Of a DNA stretch of 24,823 nucleotides, positions 7,923-16,377 are shown in pieces (the stretch's first letter is position 1; each line of letters begins with the position of its first letter). Location of the stretch: assembly GCA_018818485.1 (NCBI GenBank), contig JAHIRX010000045.1, forward strand, positions 1 through 24,823, written 5' to 3'. Under the pieces are notes generated by a model. That model saw nothing but the letters and a program-made list of their open reading frames with translations. It searched no databases and was not told the origin of the DNA. The position numbers and the translations under genes are program-made. Source of the stretch: Patescibacteria group bacterium. GTDB lineage: Bacteria > Patescibacteriota > WWE3 > UBA101185 > UBA10185.

Positions 7923-10908
7923 ATTTTTTGTACTTTCTTATCGCATCGGCAGTATACGAATTTTTAGCAGATTTAAGATCTAAAAGGGTTCCTTCAAACA
8001 AGATTTCCCCACCTTCTTCCCCACCCTCAGGTCCAAGATCAATAACCCAATCACAGTTATTAATAACATCTAAGTTATGTTCAATCATAACAACTGTATT
8101 TCCTCTTGCAGTTAGTCTTTTACAGATAGAGATTAAGTTTTCTAAATCTGCAAAGTGAAGACCTGTTGTAGGCTCATCTAAGATATACAAAGTACTGCCT
8201 GTAGATCTTTTTGATAACTCCAGTCCAAGCTTTACCCTTTGTGCTTCACCACCAGATAAAGTTGGTGCGGGTTGACCAAGTTTTATATAGCCAAGACCAA
8301 CATCATAGAGGGTTTGAAGCTTACTTCTAATTCTTGGAACATTGGCAAAAAATTCAAGTGCATCTTCAACAGTTAAATCTAATACGTGTGCGATGTTTTT
8401 ATCTTTGTATTCAACCTCTAGTGCCTCATCGTTATATCTTTTTCCATTACACACATCACACTTAACATAAACATCAGGCATAAACTGCATTTCAATCTTA
8501 ATCTGACCCTCTCCTCTACATGCTTCACATCTTCCTCCCTTAACATTAAAGCTAAATCTTCCTGGCTTATACCCTCTAAGCCTTGCTTCATGTGTCTGAG
8601 AGTACAAAGTTCTTATAAAATCAAATACTTTTGTGTATGTTGCTGGGTTTGACTTAGGTGTTCTTCCAATAGGACTCTGGTCAATAGCGATAACGTTAGA
8701 GATACTTTCTACTCCTTCAATAGATTTAAATGGTTGGGGTTTTTCCTCAATCTTAAGACCGTATTCTTGTCTTAAACCCTGATACAGGGTATCCATAACT
8801 ATAGTAGACTTCCCTGATCCTGAAACACCTGTAACACAAGTAAATTTCCCAAGGGGAATATTTAAATCAACTCCTTTTAAGTTTCTACCTTCTGCTCCCT
8901 TTAATATTAATTTCTTTCCACCAACTTTTTTATGTACTTTATGATTAGTTTCCTGCTCCAGAAGCTCTTCAAGAGCTTTCTGCTTTTTTATTCCGTTACT
9001 TCCTACAATAAGCTTTCCAGAAAGATACTTTCCAGTTAATGAGTTTTCATTCTTCATTATTTCCTCAGGAGTACCTTCTGCAATAATCTTCCCACCATGG
9101 TCTCCAGCACCAGGTCCAAAATCGAAGATATAGTCACTTTCAAACATGGTTTCTGAGTCATGTTCTACAACTAAGATTGTATTTCCTAAACCTCTAAGAT
9201 GGTGAAGGGTTTTAATAAGTTTCCCCTGATCCTTTTGATGAAGACCTAAAGAAGGCTCGTCTAAAACATACAAAACTCCAGAAAGACCAGATCCAATTTG
9301 AGATGCAAGCCTAATTCTTTGAGCTTCTCCACCAGAAAGTTCTGCTGAGGCTCTACTTAAAGTTAGATACCCTAGACCAACATCTACTAAAAACTTAACT
9401 CTATAGTTTATTTCTTTTAAAATAGTTACAGCGATCTGATTTTCCCTTTCTGTAAGCTTATCTGGAAGGTCTCTAAACCACTCCTGTACTTTAGTGATAG
9501 AGAAATCAGCAACTTCTGAAACATTAAACCCATCCAAAACTACTGAAAGTGACCCTGTTCTAAGTCTTGCACCTTTACACTCAGGGCACTCTTCTTTAAT
9601 CATATATTTTTCAATTTCATTACGGATATAGTCAGAGTCTGTTTCCCTGTGCCTTCTTGCAAGATTTGGAATAACTCCTTCAAACCCAGCATCAAAGTCT
9701 CTCTTAGCACCTTCCTGATTTCTATAAACAACTCTGAATTTTTTCTTACCCGCTCCGTACAAAAGAATATCCTTATGCTCCTTCTTAAGCTCCCCAATAG
9801 GTGTATCTATTGAAAAACCATAATCATCAGCGACTGCCTTTATAACTCTAGATGTCCAAGTAATATGCTCAAAAAGCCTAGTCCAAGGTAGTACCCCACC
9901 TTCTGATATTGAAAGTCTTGGATTAATTAACATGTCTTCTTCAATCTTTAATTCAGTTCCAATACCATCACACAGGGGACAGGCTCCATGGGGAGAGTTG
10001 AATGAAAAGGTCCTAGGTTCTATCTCAGGAAGAGAGATGTTACACACAGGGCACGCGAAGTTTTCTGAAAATAGGTGGTCTTCAAAATCTTTAGGAGTAT
10101 CTTCAAAGTCAAAGGTTTTGTCTTTAACAACAGTAACCACCACATTCCCATTACTCATTCTTAATGCTGTTTCTACAGATTGAAATATCCAACTCTCTAG
10201 CTCCTTTCTACCTTTTTCATCCTTAAGTTTCTTCTTGCTAACAATATGTCTTGAAACAAGTGCATCTATAGTATGTTTATTTGTCTTTATTAAATTAAAA
10301 TCTTCGTCTAAACCTCTAACATCACCATCAATTCTTGCTCTAATAATTCCTTGTTTTTTTAGATTTTCAAATAAATTAGAGTGCTCACCTTTCCTATCTT
10401 TAATAATTGGAGAAAATACTATAAAACGGACACCACGTTCGGTATTAAAATCTTTTTCTTCTATCACAGTTTCAATAATCTTTTGGGATATTTCCGCTGC
10501 AGATTGTCTTTGAATCTCTCTTCCACACTTAGGACAGTGAGGGTGTCCAATACGAGCATATAATAGTCTAAGAAAATCATAAACTTCAGTTATAGTTCCA
10601 ACTGTAGATCTAGGATTTTTACTTGTAGTTTTTTGGTCAATAGCAATAGCAGGAGAAAGACCTTCAATCTTTTCAACATCTGGCTTATCCATCACCCCTA
10701 AGAACTGTCTAGCATATGCAGAAAGACTCTCAACATATCTCCTCTGACCTTCAGCATAGATAGTGTCCATTGCAAGAGATGACTTACCTGATCCAGAAAC
10801 ACCAGTAAATACAACCATTTTATTCTTAGGAATATCTAAATTAACGTTTTTAAGATTATGTTGGTTAGCACCTCTAACTAAAATATGATTTAAAGAATTC
10901 TTTTCCAT
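7921..10908 (-). CDS. uvrA: Excinuclease ABC subunit A
   Basis: Two Walker A motifs (GVSGSGKS), signature motifs (LSGGEAQR, twice), DEP motifs and all CxxC zinc pairs. Start moved from 10974 to the ATG at 10908 ([21 protein letters not shown]). Confidence 0.98.
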
Positions 10909-10960
10909 ACAAATTTTTCCCGTGTGTTTAAAAAACAAACACCGAAGGATTAGCTTACTA

Positions 10961-10989
10961 AGTATACATAACATGAATATATCTGTCTA
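10961..10989 (-). promoter_or_regulatory. Sigma70-type promoter of uvrA
   Basis: TAGACA (10984-10989), 17 bp, TATACT (10961-10966) on the minus strand. Confidence 0.65.
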
Positions 10990-11009
10990 CGGGTTTTATT
11001 TGGGTATAG

Positions 11010-11059
11010 AAAAAAAGAAACGAGTTAAACGGTGCCGTAAAGGCTGCCGAAATAACTCG
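11010..11059 (-). terminator. Long hairpin terminator (distal of a tandem pair) downstream of the orphan membrane gene
   Basis: Minus strand CGAGTTA..CGG..GCC-TTTAC-GGC..CCG..TAACTCG followed by TTTCTTTTTTT. There is also a T7 run at 11065-11071 on the plus strand. Confidence 0.6.
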
Positions 11060-11071
11060 CATAATTTTTTT

Positions 11072-11095
11072 AAGAAATGAGAGTGGCGGCTCCCA
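11072..11095 (-). terminator. Short hairpin terminator (proximal of the tandem pair)
   Basis: Minus strand TGGGAG-CCGCCA-CTCTCA (6 bp, one G-U) followed by TTTCTT, 6 nt after the stop at 11102. Confidence 0.45.
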
Positions 11096-11101
11096 AATCT
11101 G

Positions 11102-11683
11102 TTAGGAAATCTTCCTATCGAACTTCTCACTTCCATCCAAACCGGGTATTATCACCATCAAACGAAGACTTTTCACAGCCCCGGAGTAAGGAATGGGAAA
11201 TATCTCTATCCCACCTTCAAAACCTTCAACTTTGCACGCATCAAAGGCTAGAGAATTAGCTTTTCTTAGTCTCCTGTCAAACAGAAGACTTTCTCCTGCA
11301 TACTTTTGTACTGCACGCAGAAGAAACTTTGCGGGAGAGCTCAATTTAGCACCGCGCTTTGCGGACCTGATTAAGACACCAGATTGGTAACTGATGTCCT
11401 CTTCTTTAGCTTCCTTGGCGTAGCACCGAACCCACTTTGTGTTTACTAAAAACATCCAAATGGGTCTAATAAAACTTACCACCAGTCCTAACCACGAACC
11501 TAAAAAGAACAATAAAACATAAAAGTTCTCTTCAGGTGTTTCGTTAGAAGGCCAGCCGAGAAGACCGTAATTAGATAGCGCATAAGTAGTTGCAGGCGCT
11601 GCGATTAGACTACAGATGAGAATAATATACATCCACCACCTGTCGTCATAAGCATCTCCAAACACACGTGAAAATAAAGTCAT
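11102..11683 (-). CDS. Orphan membrane protein, 193 aa (2 N-terminal TM helices plus a soluble C-terminal domain)
   Basis: SD AAGGAG 6 nt before the ATG. Hydrophobic segments WWMYIILICSLIAAPATTYAL and FYVLLFFLGSWLGLVVSFIRPIWMFLV. Flanked by its own promoter and terminators. Family not recognised. Confidence 0.75.
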   Translation of the reverse strand: MTLFSRVFGDAYDDRWWMYIILICSLIAAPATTYALSNYGLLGWPSNETPEENFYVLLFFLGSWLGLVVSFIRPIWMFLVNTKWVRCYAKEAKEEDISYQSGVLIRSAKRGAKLSSPAKFLLRAVQKYAGESLLFDRRLRKANSLAFDACKVEGFEGGIEIFPIPYSGAVKSLRLMVIIPGLDGSEKFDRKIS

Positions 11684-11912
11684 TGTTTTCTCCTTAGGGT
11701 TAAACCCTTATTTAGTTGTGTCGAGAAGGTTAAACCTTTACAGACACATTTGGAATTCTCTACGAATCATCCGCCAATGAAATCGCAGGCAATCTGAGGC
11801 TAAGTGGTTAACCCCAAGTTGCCTACGACTTCCTTTATATTTTCAATGTTCTAAATAAAATAAAGCCAGAGAGACGGCTTTTAAGCAGTACTCCTTCTAT
11901 TTAACTTTACAT
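11684..11912 (-). ncRNA. Candidate structured cis-regulatory RNA leader or sRNA of about 230 nt (no known family recognised)
   Basis: Hand-folded: 24-bp hairpin at 11779-11832 with five G-U pairs on this strand, nested hairpin at 11717-11748, hairpin at 11696-11708 next to the SD, and a terminator-like hairpin at 11862-11881. Confidence 0.55.
11853..11881 (-). terminator. Terminator-like hairpin (class A PBP terminator and/or leader attenuator)
   Basis: Minus strand AAAGCC-GTCTCTCT-GGCTTT followed by ATTTTATTT. Confidence 0.5.
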
Positions 11913-11916
11913 CGCT

Positions 11917-11945
11917 ATTATACTATAAGGTAAATATTAAGTCAA
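11917..11945 (-). promoter_or_regulatory. Near-consensus sigma70 promoter driving the leader and orphan gene
   Basis: TTGACT (11940-11945), 17 bp, TATAAT (11917-11922). The -35 overlaps the PBP stop codon. Confidence 0.7.
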
Positions 11946-14209
11946 TCGTCATCATCTTTACCCCCATCTTCATCTTCCTCTTTTTCAATACACAAAGTCT
12001 CAGGAACAAATGTTCCTTTTATGAAAACTTCAGAAACACCACATTTCTCATCATATTTTACAAAAATATCTCCAAGCTTCTCATAAACTTCATTTGGCTT
12101 TCCATCTAAAACTTCTGTCATTATTTTATTCCATATAGGCGCAGCTCCTGTTAAACCTGATGCGAGGTATCTATTCATAGGAGTACCATCGTTATTTCCA
12201 ACCCAAACACCTACTACATAAGATGGGGTATACCCCAGAGTCCAATTATCCTTTATATTATCTGTGGTTCCTGTTTTTACAGCAACCTTATAACCAGGGA
12301 TCACAAGAGAACTACCAGAACCAAAGGCTGGTGTTCTTGCCACATTATCAGAAAGAATGTGCCATATTAAATAAGAAACCTCACTACTCAAAACCTGACT
12401 ATCTTCTCTTCTATCTTTATATATCTCGTATCCTTTTGAGTCTTTCACGCTTAAGATCGGGGTTGTTTCTTTATATATCCCATTTCTAGATAAAGTCCCG
12501 AACACATTTGTGTGATCCAACAACCTTACCTCCTTACCTCCTAAGGTAACTGATAGACCATAAGAACCATCTATTTTCCAGTTTGAAAGCCCCATTTTAT
12601 GTCCAAGGTCTACAATATTATCTGGACCTACACTACTAGCGACCTTTACAGCCGGAACATTGTAAGAATTAGCTAAGGCTTGGCGCACGGTTACTTTTCC
12701 ATGAAACTTACCATCGTAATTTACTGGAGTATATGGTTTTTGACCTTCTACTTTATAGGTAATTGCAGAATCATCAATTATTGTGGCTGGCGTATAGTTT
12801 CTGCTTAAAGCTAGTGCGTATGTGACAGGTTTTATAGATGATCCAGGTTGCCTATAACCTGTTACCACATCAAAGGCTCCCCAACCCTCTTGAAAATAAT
12901 CAACTGACCCAACATAAGCTAATATTTCTGAGTTTTTTGAATCTAAAACTACCGCGGCTCCATTTGAAAAACCGAGATATGAGTTTTTCCCTACCTCTTC
13001 TTTTACAATCTCTTGAACCTTATCATGAAGTTCTAAATCTAGAGTAGTAGTAATCGTTAAATCTCCTAACTCAACAAATCTCTTACCATATTCTTTCTCA
13101 AGTAACCCTCTAACATAGATTACAAAATGAGGAGCTCTAATAAACTCTACTTGGTCAATAAAATTAAGTTCCATATCAAATGCTTCATCTACTTCCTCTT
13201 TTGAGATATATCTTGTTTCTACCATTCTATCCAGAACATATCTTTGCCTTTCTTTTGCTTTTTCAAGATCAGTAATTGGCGAGTAGCTTGTGGGTGATGA
13301 AGGAAGTCCTGCTAATAAGGTTGATTCTGCAATATTTAATTCCCAGACGTTTTTCCCGAAATATTTTTGTGCTGCTGATTGAATACCCCACGAAGTACCC
13401 CCATAAGGCACGTTGTTTAAATACATTTCTAGGATTTGTGACTTAGAGTATTTAACTTCTACAAGTAGTGCTAAAACTGCTTCTTTTATCTTCCTCGAAA
13501 CAGTTCTCTCAGGAGAAAGGAGTACATTTTTAATTAACTGCTGAGTAATTGTAGATCCCCCTTGTAAATTTCCACCAAAAAAATTGTTCTTTGCTGCCCT
13601 GATAACACTATCTAAACGAATTCCCCAGTGACTATAAAACTTATCATCCTCAACAGCAATCGTAGATTGAATAACATGAAGTGGAACTTCATCCAGACTT
13701 ATGGGATTGTATTTTTTATCTACATATATTTCATATAGTAGCTTTCCATTTCTATCCAATATTCTCGTAGAGCTTTGATTTGCTTTTGTAACAAGTGAGC
13801 CAGGTGTTGGTAGTTCTCTAAACCATCTATAAATTTCAAGAGGGGTGAATATAAAAACTACACTAATAAGTGCTCCTACAAAGTATGGCTTTAAATTTAA
13901 TATCTTAGAAAGTCTCGTCTTAAGATTACCTAGAAACACTTTCCATTTCTTCTTAATAGAAGGAATTATTTTTCTAATGTTTTTAAACCTGTCTACTTTC
14001 TTTCTGGGTACTATTTTAGTCTTTTTTTTGATCTTCTTGGACTTCTTACCCTTAATTTTCTTATTCTTTAGGGCCTTAACTGATGTAGAGATTTCTTTTT
14101 TAACAGCTTTGTAGATTTTTGGAGTGATTACAAGAATCTTCTCAAATGGAAAAATAATAATAAATCCAATATTCTTTATAAGTTTTGATACATTATTAAT
14201 AAAAGGCAT
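11942..14209 (-). CDS. Class A bifunctional penicillin-binding protein (PBP1A family)
   Basis: Glycosyltransferase motifs AVEDDKFYSHWGI, GGSTITQQLIKN, RKIKE and ILEMYLN. Transpeptidase motifs SSIK, SYN and KTGT. One TM helix after a long basic N-terminus. Confidence 0.95.
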   Translation of the reverse strand: MPFINNVSKLIKNIGFIIIFPFEKILVITPKIYKAVKKEISTSVKALKNKKIKGKKSKKIKKKTKIVPRKKVDRFKNIRKIIPSIKKKWKVFLGNLKTRLSKILNLKPYFVGALISVVFIFTPLEIYRWFRELPTPGSLVTKANQSSTRILDRNGKLLYEIYVDKKYNPISLDEVPLHVIQSTIAVEDDKFYSHWGIRLDSVIRAAKNNFFGGNLQGGSTITQQLIKNVLLSPERTVSRKIKEAVLALLVEVKYSKSQILEMYLNNVPYGGTSWGIQSAAQKYFGKNVWELNIAESTLLAGLPSSPTSYSPITDLEKAKERQRYVLDRMVETRYISKEEVDEAFDMELNFIDQVEFIRAPHFVIYVRGLLEKEYGKRFVELGDLTITTTLDLELHDKVQEIVKEEVGKNSYLGFSNGAAVVLDSKNSEILAYVGSVDYFQEGWGAFDVVTGYRQPGSSIKPVTYALALSRNYTPATIIDDSAITYKVEGQKPYTPVNYDGKFHGKVTVRQALANSYNVPAVKVASSVGPDNIVDLGHKMGLSNWKIDGSYGLSVTLGGKEVRLLDHTNVFGTLSRNGIYKETTPILSVKDSKGYEIYKDRREDSQVLSSEVSYLIWHILSDNVARTPAFGSGSSLVIPGYKVAVKTGTTDNIKDNWTLGYTPSYVVGVWVGNNDGTPMNRYLASGLTGAAPIWNKIMTEVLDGKPNEVYEKLGDIFVKYDEKCGVSEVFIKGTFVPETLCIEKEEDEDGGKDDDD

Positions 14210-16309: not shown

Positions 16310-16377
16310 TTGACATCTTCGCCTTAGTTTCGGTACTATAAAAATGCGAAGAAAAACCATAAATTTTCCTAAGGAGG
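16310..16377 (+). promoter_or_regulatory. lexA promoter, candidate operator and SD
   Basis: TTGACA (16310-16315), 18 bp, TACTAT (16334-16339). Inverted repeat TAGT-N6-ACTA (16325-16338) overlaps the -10. SD AAGGAGG at 16371-16377. Confidence 0.7.

Follow-up and report, generated by a model that had tools for sequence, protein, structure and literature searches.

Long hairpins in the leaders of transcripts can serve as RNase III cleavage sites, as in E. coli rnc and pnp and in phage lambda N, and protein-binding leaders also exist. The type I toxins of tisB-istR and dinQ-agrB are peptides of less than 60 aa, which are accompanied by an antisense RNA gene and a LexA box. Replacement-type hypervariable islets are known as well, among them the defence hotspots in P2-like prophages, which have no homology to the locus described here. 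Another such islet, vaa/vmp of Mycoplasma hominis, lies beside uvrA and is replaced by intraspecies recombination (PMC524362). Sequence conservation is poor among the SOS division inhibitors, which are small proteins of the membrane (PMC6051672, PMC6851548, PMC13396833). The present analysis concerns a cassette on the minus strand of contig JAHIRX010000045.1, of which positions 1 to 24,823 are hereafter called the window. The contig comes from a groundwater bacterium of candidate division WWE3, a member of the candidate phyla radiation (CPR), and its assembly comprised 565 kb in 86 contigs and was 85% complete. Almost nothing is known about gene regulation and fast-evolving conflict loci in the CPR (Patescibacteria), whose members are not growable alone.

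The gene order of the locus is lexA and, divergent from it, uvrB, the gene of a class A penicillin-binding protein (PBP1A), the cassette, and uvrA, with uvrC farther along. The original prediction had described a self-contained, probably acquired cassette under RNA-level control, with a promoter, a multi-hairpin leader, the ribosome-binding site AAGGAG, a 193-aa open reading frame (ORF) with two transmembrane helices, and two terminators. All of these elements were recovered on the minus strand where they had been placed (Table 1), and, as every one of them belongs to the cassette itself, it is self-contained. The reading favoured here, with a probability of roughly 0.55, is that a cis-acting RNA in the 5' untranslated region (5'-UTR) gates a membrane protein that has been diversified by recombination at a fixed hotspot. 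A near-consensus sigma-70 promoter would drive an mRNA with a conserved 5'-UTR core, which is followed by two variable hairpins (P3 and P4) and the ribosome-binding site. The product would be a protein of ~190 aa with two N-terminal membrane helices and a predicted cytoplasmic C-terminal domain. A conserved trans-acting factor may dock at the core or process it. The most likely candidates would be RNase III, by cleavage of the long duplex, and a protein or the ribosome, by binding to the single-stranded junction. Through such a factor, mRNA stability or translation would be set after transcription, no matter which protein version follows. Less firmly, its turnover suggests that the protein serves no housekeeping function and is instead under frequency-dependent selection of the conflict type, such as occurs in phage exclusion, in immunity, or in host interaction.

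The leader carries much of the evidence for this reading. It was found with the homologue of the ORF as well and was conserved, with compensatory changes, in eight loci, better than the protein itself. Over its full length, a covariance model built from the leaders of the window and locus L037 matched G077 (80 bits) and G029 (68 bits), which are two species of another genus. A junction-pattern scan of metagenome contigs gave 15 matches, four of which were true loci (L075, L083, L084, and L085); the other 11 lay in GC-rich coding sequence and had arisen by chance. L118 and L119 came from a search with a protein profile. The leader set consisted of eight distinct loci (the window, L037, G077, G029, L075, L083, L084, and L085) and a ninth, L118, which was 97% identical to G077. 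By comparison of these relatives, the cassette is a module that recurs directly before uvrA in two genera belonging to one WWE3 family. The leaders of the window and L037 were 81% identical, in contrast to the synonymous divergence (dS) of ~0.5 in the flanking genes; the promoter hexamers were kept, the spacer had diverged, and compensatory changes were present in hairpins P2 and P3.

The leader core of ~95 nt is composed of the motif UUGAAAA (UUGACAA in G077 and L083), the 24-bp hairpin P2 with G-U pairs and compensatory changes, and the unpaired CCAUUGGCGGAUGG junction. The G-U pairs of P2 permit full pairing only on the mRNA-sense strand. In the alignment of eight sequences, 97.9% of the cells of its 24 pairs were paired; seven pairs had changed on both sides and nine on one. 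Over all 30 pairs of the structure, 97% of the cells paired and 12 pairs had changed on both sides. This covariation was attained in none of 500 shuffles, and slid registers dropped to 29-56% paired. These alignments show that the core is under purifying selection as RNA. The junction J was the most conserved stretch of the leader and also the 5' edge of the segment that is swapped between loci. The transcribed leader of ~227 nt had a folding energy of -71.6 kcal/mol (z = -4.8, 200 shuffles), and AAGGAG was unpaired in the minimum-free-energy fold. The 3' half was variable. P3, which belongs to it, had two compensatory pairs in its outer stem relative to L037, and G077 and G029 had analogous two-tier hairpins of different sequence at this position. 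All three pairs counted in P4 were altered on both sides across loci. A purine-rich ribosome-binding site with similar spacing was present in all eight loci.

This arrangement resembles the RNase III-processed leaders in that a long, near-perfect 5'-UTR hairpin, conserved as RNA, stands upstream of a free ribosome-binding site. It differs from them in having no sequence or Rfam relationship, and cleavage is only conjectured here. RNase III was encoded in the three cassette-bearing genomes tested. To our knowledge, the conserved single-stranded junction has no counterpart among processed or bound leaders. The conserved leader as a whole had no counterpart in Rfam or in the literature searched. 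Strong leader matches occurred in only 3 of 86 family representatives, and 151 genomes sampled across the phylum contained none, apart from weak hairpin-like matches. A pattern built on the P3/P4 hairpins found no match in the genome contigs because that half of the leader is variable. Several other candidates were rejected. The weak covariance-model matches L043, L044, L049, and L050 were ruled out by their genomic context. An upstream ORF starting from the invariant AUG of the junction would have 10-38 codons in a frame that varies, and in L084 it would be continuous with the main ORF. Pairing of the junction with the Shine-Dalgarno (SD) sequence or with the 3' leader was no better than in shuffles, and CsrA-type control via GGA motifs was dismissed since no CsrA gene was found in three cassette-bearing genomes. 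Weak core matches of ~30 bits were also observed at L070 (G075) 1501-1671 and L133 (G143) 1501-1598. These are long hairpins with related base sequence, which precede a 492-aa membrane-anchored protein and a 322-aa lipoprotein-like protein, respectively, neither of them near uvrA. Such hairpins may be distantly related to the leader or may resemble it only in being long.

A leader that is long, conserved, and structured could also be a metabolite or ion riboswitch or an attenuator, in which read-through or translation depends on a small ligand, either because the hairpin P1 terminates conditionally or because P2 and the junction make up the aptamer. Many orphan riboswitch candidates lie before membrane proteins. 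The strong promoter is followed within ~60 nt by P1, a terminator-like hairpin with a U tract, in five of the nine loci (the window, L037, G077, L083, and L118). P1 was missing from the other four (G029, L075, L084, and L085) and is hence an optional 5' extension outside the universal core. The core is a simple long hairpin with a single strand rather than a multi-helix junction, a conserved anti-terminator or SD-sequestering alternative was not found, and the half that would be the expression platform is the swapped part. Rfam 15 gave 0 matches at the gathering threshold for the whole window, and positions 10900-12050 gave only noise (E >= 2), with no family even at E = 10. For the leaders of L041, L042, and L037, only a sub-threshold match to mir-23 was returned (27 bits against a threshold of 52). 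A riboswitch or attenuator is accordingly considered unlikely.

The second line of evidence is the swapping of the cargo behind the leader. Every locus had, in turn, uvrB or PBP1A, the promoter, the leader, an ORF of 168-209 aa, and uvrA. According to hydropathy, the products of seven of the eight ORFs begin with a short N-terminus and a pair of hydrophobic helices and continue as a soluble domain of ~110-135 aa; the ORF of L085 has one merged hydrophobic block of ~58 residues. The proteins fell into at least six groups, namely P0001/P0002, P0003/P0006/P0007 with a fragment from G082, P0004 with the ORF of L075, and the types of L083, L084, and L085. No similarity was detectable among the three groups that were compared (BLASTP E > 0.1, hhalign probability < 2%). 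The locus is in this respect a natural experiment, in which one leader has been kept and at least six protein versions have been swapped between flanks that are sometimes 95-100% identical.

The replacement could be followed in pairs of closely related loci. P0002 was found on contigs L037 and L038 in the same context of PBP1A, leader, ORF, and uvrA. The flanking genes of the window and L037/L038 were 88-91% identical in nucleotides and 92-97% in protein, with nonsynonymous divergence (dN) of 0.015 and dS of 0.48 for uvrA and 0.045 and 0.58 for PBP1A. By contrast, dN was 0.50 and dS was saturated for the ORF. The ORF alleles are hence much older than their flanks, which points to imports rather than merely fast drift. 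In L083 and G077, uvrB was 95.7% identical, the sequence through the junction was 95.3% identical, and identity was 100% over 399 nt from ~10 nt past the stop codon, whereas the intervening 591 and 673 nt had no similarity, with the break just after the junction. The same pattern was found in L084 and G029, whose flanks were 87-89% identical. L118 and G077 were 97% identical except for 128 vs 196 nt from the start codon, so that on this comparison only the N-terminal membrane module is exchanged. These comparisons show that related strains and species have traded the 3' leader and the ORF through recombination, at one fixed address next to uvrA. All eight ORFs had a GC content at third codon positions (GC3) of 37-49%, compared with 18-38% in the flanking uvr genes; repeated import and recombination-associated GC bias would both explain this elevation. 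A silent donor copy of the L083 allele was not found in G077, G029, G000, G001, or G075.

The earlier description of the cassette as acquired can be kept in part. The composition looks foreign, and the 3' leader and ORF have apparently been acquired through allele replacement behind the conserved leader core; the cassette is a recurring module at a fixed address and not a one-off island. Among described systems, replacement islets such as vaa/vmp and the SOS membrane inhibitors come closest in concept. The vaa/vmp islet is similar in its conserved flanks and 5' part, its exchanged variable 3' part, and its membrane protein cargo. No homology connects the two. Moreover, the conserved 5' part is a non-coding RNA leader here instead of a coding 5' end, the cargo consists of a single small gene, and the genome is a reduced one of the CPR.

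The exchange might instead be carried out at the DNA level, with the hairpin and junction as an attC/attI-like or other single-strand hairpin site at which a recombinase exchanges cassettes. In two independent pairs, the 5' edge of the replaced segment lay ~5-20 nt after the hairpin and junction and the 3' edge ~10 nt past the stop codon, and unrelated cargos followed one conserved 5' element. As in integron cassettes, a hairpin-forming element of ~55 nt is associated with exchangeable single-gene cargos. Unlike in integrons, the hairpin is 5' of the ORF inside the transcript, in one copy per genome with no array, and the breakpoints are variable rather than at one fixed nucleotide. The third exchange extended from the start codon to inside the ORF, as expected for homologous recombination, and the wobble changes of P2 (G-U to G-C or A-U) are typical of RNA. 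No second copy of the element flanked the cargo or occurred elsewhere in the genomes. There was no recombinase gene adjacent to the cassette, and no integrase was found among its neighbours uvrB, PBP1A, and uvrA, a genome-wide integrase search not having been made. A DNA-level recombination site is quite improbable on this evidence. A repeat or mobile element was also rejected, the cassette being single-copy in its genome and without a match in viral contigs.

The site before uvrA varied widely among relatives. The order uvrB-PBP1A-uvrA was common across the family. In G001, which belongs to the same genus (~83% nucleotide identity), uvrA directly followed uvrB (L117, G001:C5, 1954-7315). Positions 14290-11011 of the window, which contain PBP1A and the cassette, had no counterpart there, and homology resumed at 11010. 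In this 72% complete genome, the sole counterpart of PBP1A found was a 46%-identical paralogue elsewhere. In many family genomes the slot before uvrA was empty, and in others it held different small proteins. In genus g29, a hydrophobic protein of 92-114 aa with the motif YKYPF and one to three predicted helices was seen before uvrA without a leader (L123, L125, and L129).

The protein P0001 was nearly the orphan that had been predicted. A word search of 5.8 billion proteins returned the query alone, and one homologue, P0002 (187 aa, 43% identity), emerged from a full HMMER search of 1.84 billion cluster representatives. No match was obtained in Pfam or NCBIfam, and a tblastn-type search of 61 related genomes found none. 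The hydrophobic helices of P0001 were located by hydropathy at residues ~17-38 and 53-80, followed by a basic C-terminal part of 113 aa. In most alleles, the second helix is followed by basic residues, from which the C-terminal domain is predicted to be cytoplasmic. Features and structures in the ESM Atlas gave no usable lead for the three alleles tried. AlphaFold2 reached a mean model confidence (pLDDT, predicted local distance difference test) of 50 for P0001 alone and of 47 for the P0006 group alignment. The low-confidence models of the two groups had the same order of two membrane helices, three helices, and strands, which is only a hint of a common fold. A holin was rejected as a candidate. 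Holins have 65-150 aa, one to four membrane helices, and a short charged tail and are encoded next to an endolysin; P0001 has a soluble domain of 113 aa, no match to a holin in Pfam or PHROG, and no lysin neighbour.

The predicted outlier composition of the ORF was borne out. Its GC content was 42.5%, compared with a genome mean of 35.6% for ORFs of at least 150 aa (z = 2.9), and its GC3 was 39.9% vs 26.4% genome-wide (99.5th percentile). The observed/expected ratio of CpG was 0.83 vs 0.47, and the codon-usage likelihood was in the lowest 0.5% of 393 long ORFs. Transfer RNA, transfer-messenger RNA, and known non-coding RNA were sought in the GC-richer patch, and none was found. Such atypical codon usage, together with the dN of ~0.5 and the poor structure predictions, would also be seen if the ORF were incidental or decaying and the functional product were a non-coding RNA from the promoter to P2 and the junction. 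The frame of 168-209 aa, the ribosome-binding site, the two N-terminal helices, and the helix-then-strand order have, however, been kept in all nine loci. The indels between P0001 and P0002 are in frame, and dedicated terminators follow the stop codon. A decaying ORF is therefore rated as very improbable.

The neighbourhood suggests a further explanation, in which the cassette encodes a DNA-damage-linked small membrane protein that delays division as a functional analogue of YneA, SosA, or SidA. The module lies within the cluster lexA-uvrB-PBP1A-X-uvrA-uvrC. As in YneA, SosA, SidA/DidA, and ChiZ, a small membrane protein near lexA and uvr genes shows extreme non-conservation between lineages. 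YneA-like proteins with a LysM-like region occur in the same slot in other genera. These proteins, observed in L021, L023, L024, and L027, have 135-141 aa and are encoded after the PBP1A gene and before uvrA, overlapping the PBP1A stop codon; one membrane helix and a LysM-like C-terminus (GEGLWQVAERVCGDGEKY...) give them an architecture like that of YneA. Read-through into the cassette is possible, as the PBP1A gene has a promoter of its own and no terminator was present between its stop codon and the cassette.

The regulatory input expected for such a protein was explored through the lexA promoters of the family. In 27 aligned promoters (loci L087-L116), TTGACAT-n-TTCG-N7-TTCGGTA was strongly conserved. 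The direct repeat TTCG-N7-TTCG sits between the -35 and -10 elements; it was strict in 24 of the 27, with near-variants in the other three. An inverted CGAA was often observed ~10 nt after the -10 element. TTCG-N7-TTCG, which differs from the motif TTAG-N6-TACTA given earlier, is thereby proposed as a candidate LexA operator for this WWE3 family. The strict repeat occurred six times in the genome, twice in promoter-like settings, namely at lexA and before an operon of a small ORF and a Y-family polymerase. The latter was observed on contig C21 (-) of G000 at ~1538, where a TTGAC-TTCG-N7-TTCGG promoter precedes an ORF of ~96 aa and a DinB/UmuC-like polymerase gene. This arrangement fits an SOS operon and would support the operator assignment. 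Within the window, the motif was found only at 16318-16332 (+), in the lexA promoter. Neither the cassette and uvrA promoters of the window nor any of the eight cassette promoters contained it, which leaves SOS control of the cassette through its own promoter unsupported.

Other properties also separate the cassette from the SOS division inhibitors. The cassette has its own constitutive-looking promoter and a leader. YneA and SosA have a single helix with an extracellular tail or LysM, in contrast to the two helices and predicted cytoplasmic domain of the cassette protein, which has no match to LysM or any other Pfam family. Wholesale replacement in near-identical strains would be unexpected for a protein that fits a conserved divisome target. 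An SOS division inhibitor is thus doubtful, about as much so as the riboswitch. The type I toxins are alike in that a membrane protein follows a long structured leader near DNA-damage genes, which fits the tight control suggested in the original prediction. They are unlike the cassette in size (193 aa for the cassette protein) and in the LexA box, which is missing here.

Several points weigh against the gating of a diversified membrane protein by a cis-acting leader. The eight leaders represent ~5 lineages, so that kinship inflates the covariation statistics, and the sequences had been aligned to fit the model. The leaders yielded no alternative pairing that is conserved, no anti-SD interaction, and no junction resembling a ligand pocket. 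RNA-level control is suggested only by conservation and conflict-type selection only by turnover, and RNase III cleavage is a guess made solely from the length of the duplex. The membrane topology was derived solely from hydropathy and the positive-inside rule. Searches of the eight alleles in PADLOC and PHROGs gave best E values of 0.004-0.07, each in a single member, with no shared family, and no partner gene is present at the locus. The toxic, defence-related, or host-interacting effector of the original prediction gained no support from these profiles or from Pfam. The same locus occurred at 99.9-100% identity in five other assemblies from groundwater samples of different studies, which indicates that the allele is fixed within the window's own species. 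A 612-nt contig from a groundwater metatranscriptome was identical to 11047-11640 with 0 mismatches, and a piece of PBP1A was also present. Transcription of the cassette is possible and compatible with this contig, which could also be carried-over DNA and does not span the leader.

A bolder extension of the favoured reading treats the core as a "socket", which would provide universal post-transcriptional control and at the same time an upstream homology or recognition arm for plugging in unrelated genes beside uvrA. It would amount to an undescribed single-slot exchange system in the CPR, possibly for phage exclusion or host-interaction specificity, and is regarded as speculative and rather unlikely. 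Independently of this extension, the RNA element of ~95 nt, for which Rfam has no entry, is supported by covariation and lies in a clear genetic context. Should the leader be a general control or processing signal, this radiation would gain a rare example of a defined regulatory RNA. A role of the protein in defence or host specificity would make the site a marker of where reduced genomes keep variable "interface" genes.

Table 1. Positions of the cassette elements in the window.
Feature	Position	Strand	Remark
Sigma-70-type promoter, TTGACT-17-TATAAT	11917..11945	-	11/12 consensus matches; best site in scanned region
P1, weak terminator-like hairpin (7 bp, 3 G-C) with U tract	11853..11881	-	~30-57 nt after predicted transcription start
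UUGAAAA motif	11840..11846	-	Conserved in leader alignments; 7-8 nt 5' of long hairpin
P2, 24-bp hairpin (14 bp, one mismatch, 10 bp, 4-nt loop), five G-U pairs	11779..11832	-	
J, unpaired junction, (C)CAUUGGCGGAUGG then GUAGAG	11758..11778	-	Invariant alignment columns
P3, two-tier hairpin (outer GUGUC/GACAC, inner AAGG/CCUU, loop UUUAA)	11718..11747	-	
P4, small hairpin AGGG-UUUAA-CCCU	11696..11708	-	Abuts ribosome-binding site
Shine-Dalgarno sequence AAGGAG	11690..11695	-	6 nt 5' of ATG
ORF P0001, 193 aa	11102..11683	-	Two membrane helices, basic C-terminal domain
Terminator 1, 6-bp hairpin with U-rich tail	11069..11095	-	Kept in L037 with G-U to A-U change
Terminator 2, extended hairpin with U run	11011..11060	-	Unrelated hairpin and U run at same place in L037

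The non-coding gap between the stop codon of PBP1A and the start codon of the ORF was 258 nt (11941-11684), and the -35 element of the cassette promoter overlapped that stop codon. The other seven loci had a comparable pair of -35 and -10 elements 17 nt apart with unrelated spacers, usually with CYTATAGY 5' of the pair. Their -35 element was TTGACA or TTGACT in six and TTGAAG in L075; the -10 element was TATAAT in four and TACAAT, TATATT, or TAGAAT in the remainder. Relative to L037, a 25-nt deletion in the window had removed the old -35 element and the spacer, and a new TTGACT was present 17 nt upstream, inside the end of the PBP1A gene. The correct distance of the new element suggests selection to keep a promoter, and the rebuilding after the deletion looks like compensatory maintenance. 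Between the predicted transcription start and P1, an AUG-UAA pair and the near-palindrome AAGGAGUACUGCUU were observed (11883-11896 and 11907-11912, minus strand), and the GAGAGURCU part of the latter was common to the window, L037, and G077. At the 3' end, the two terminators folded together at -29 kcal/mol (z = -4.7), and a uvrA promoter-like site followed them at 10989-10961.

Three further observations concern the surroundings of the cassette in relatives. In L039 (658-1035), the P0002 allele was followed by a convergent, very hydrophobic gene instead of the terminators and uvrA; this 1-kb contig with ~2x coverage may reflect strain rearrangement or chimeric assembly. Between uvrB and the cassette, L041 (G077; 323-1386) and L118 (2593-3656) had two coiled-coil-like ORFs, 232 and 104 aa long. 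They were missing from the 95%-identical L083, which is another indel at the hotspot. Finally, uvrB in L084 (1020-4670) encodes 1216 aa with a large insertion after the Walker A region, and this insertion is most likely an intein.

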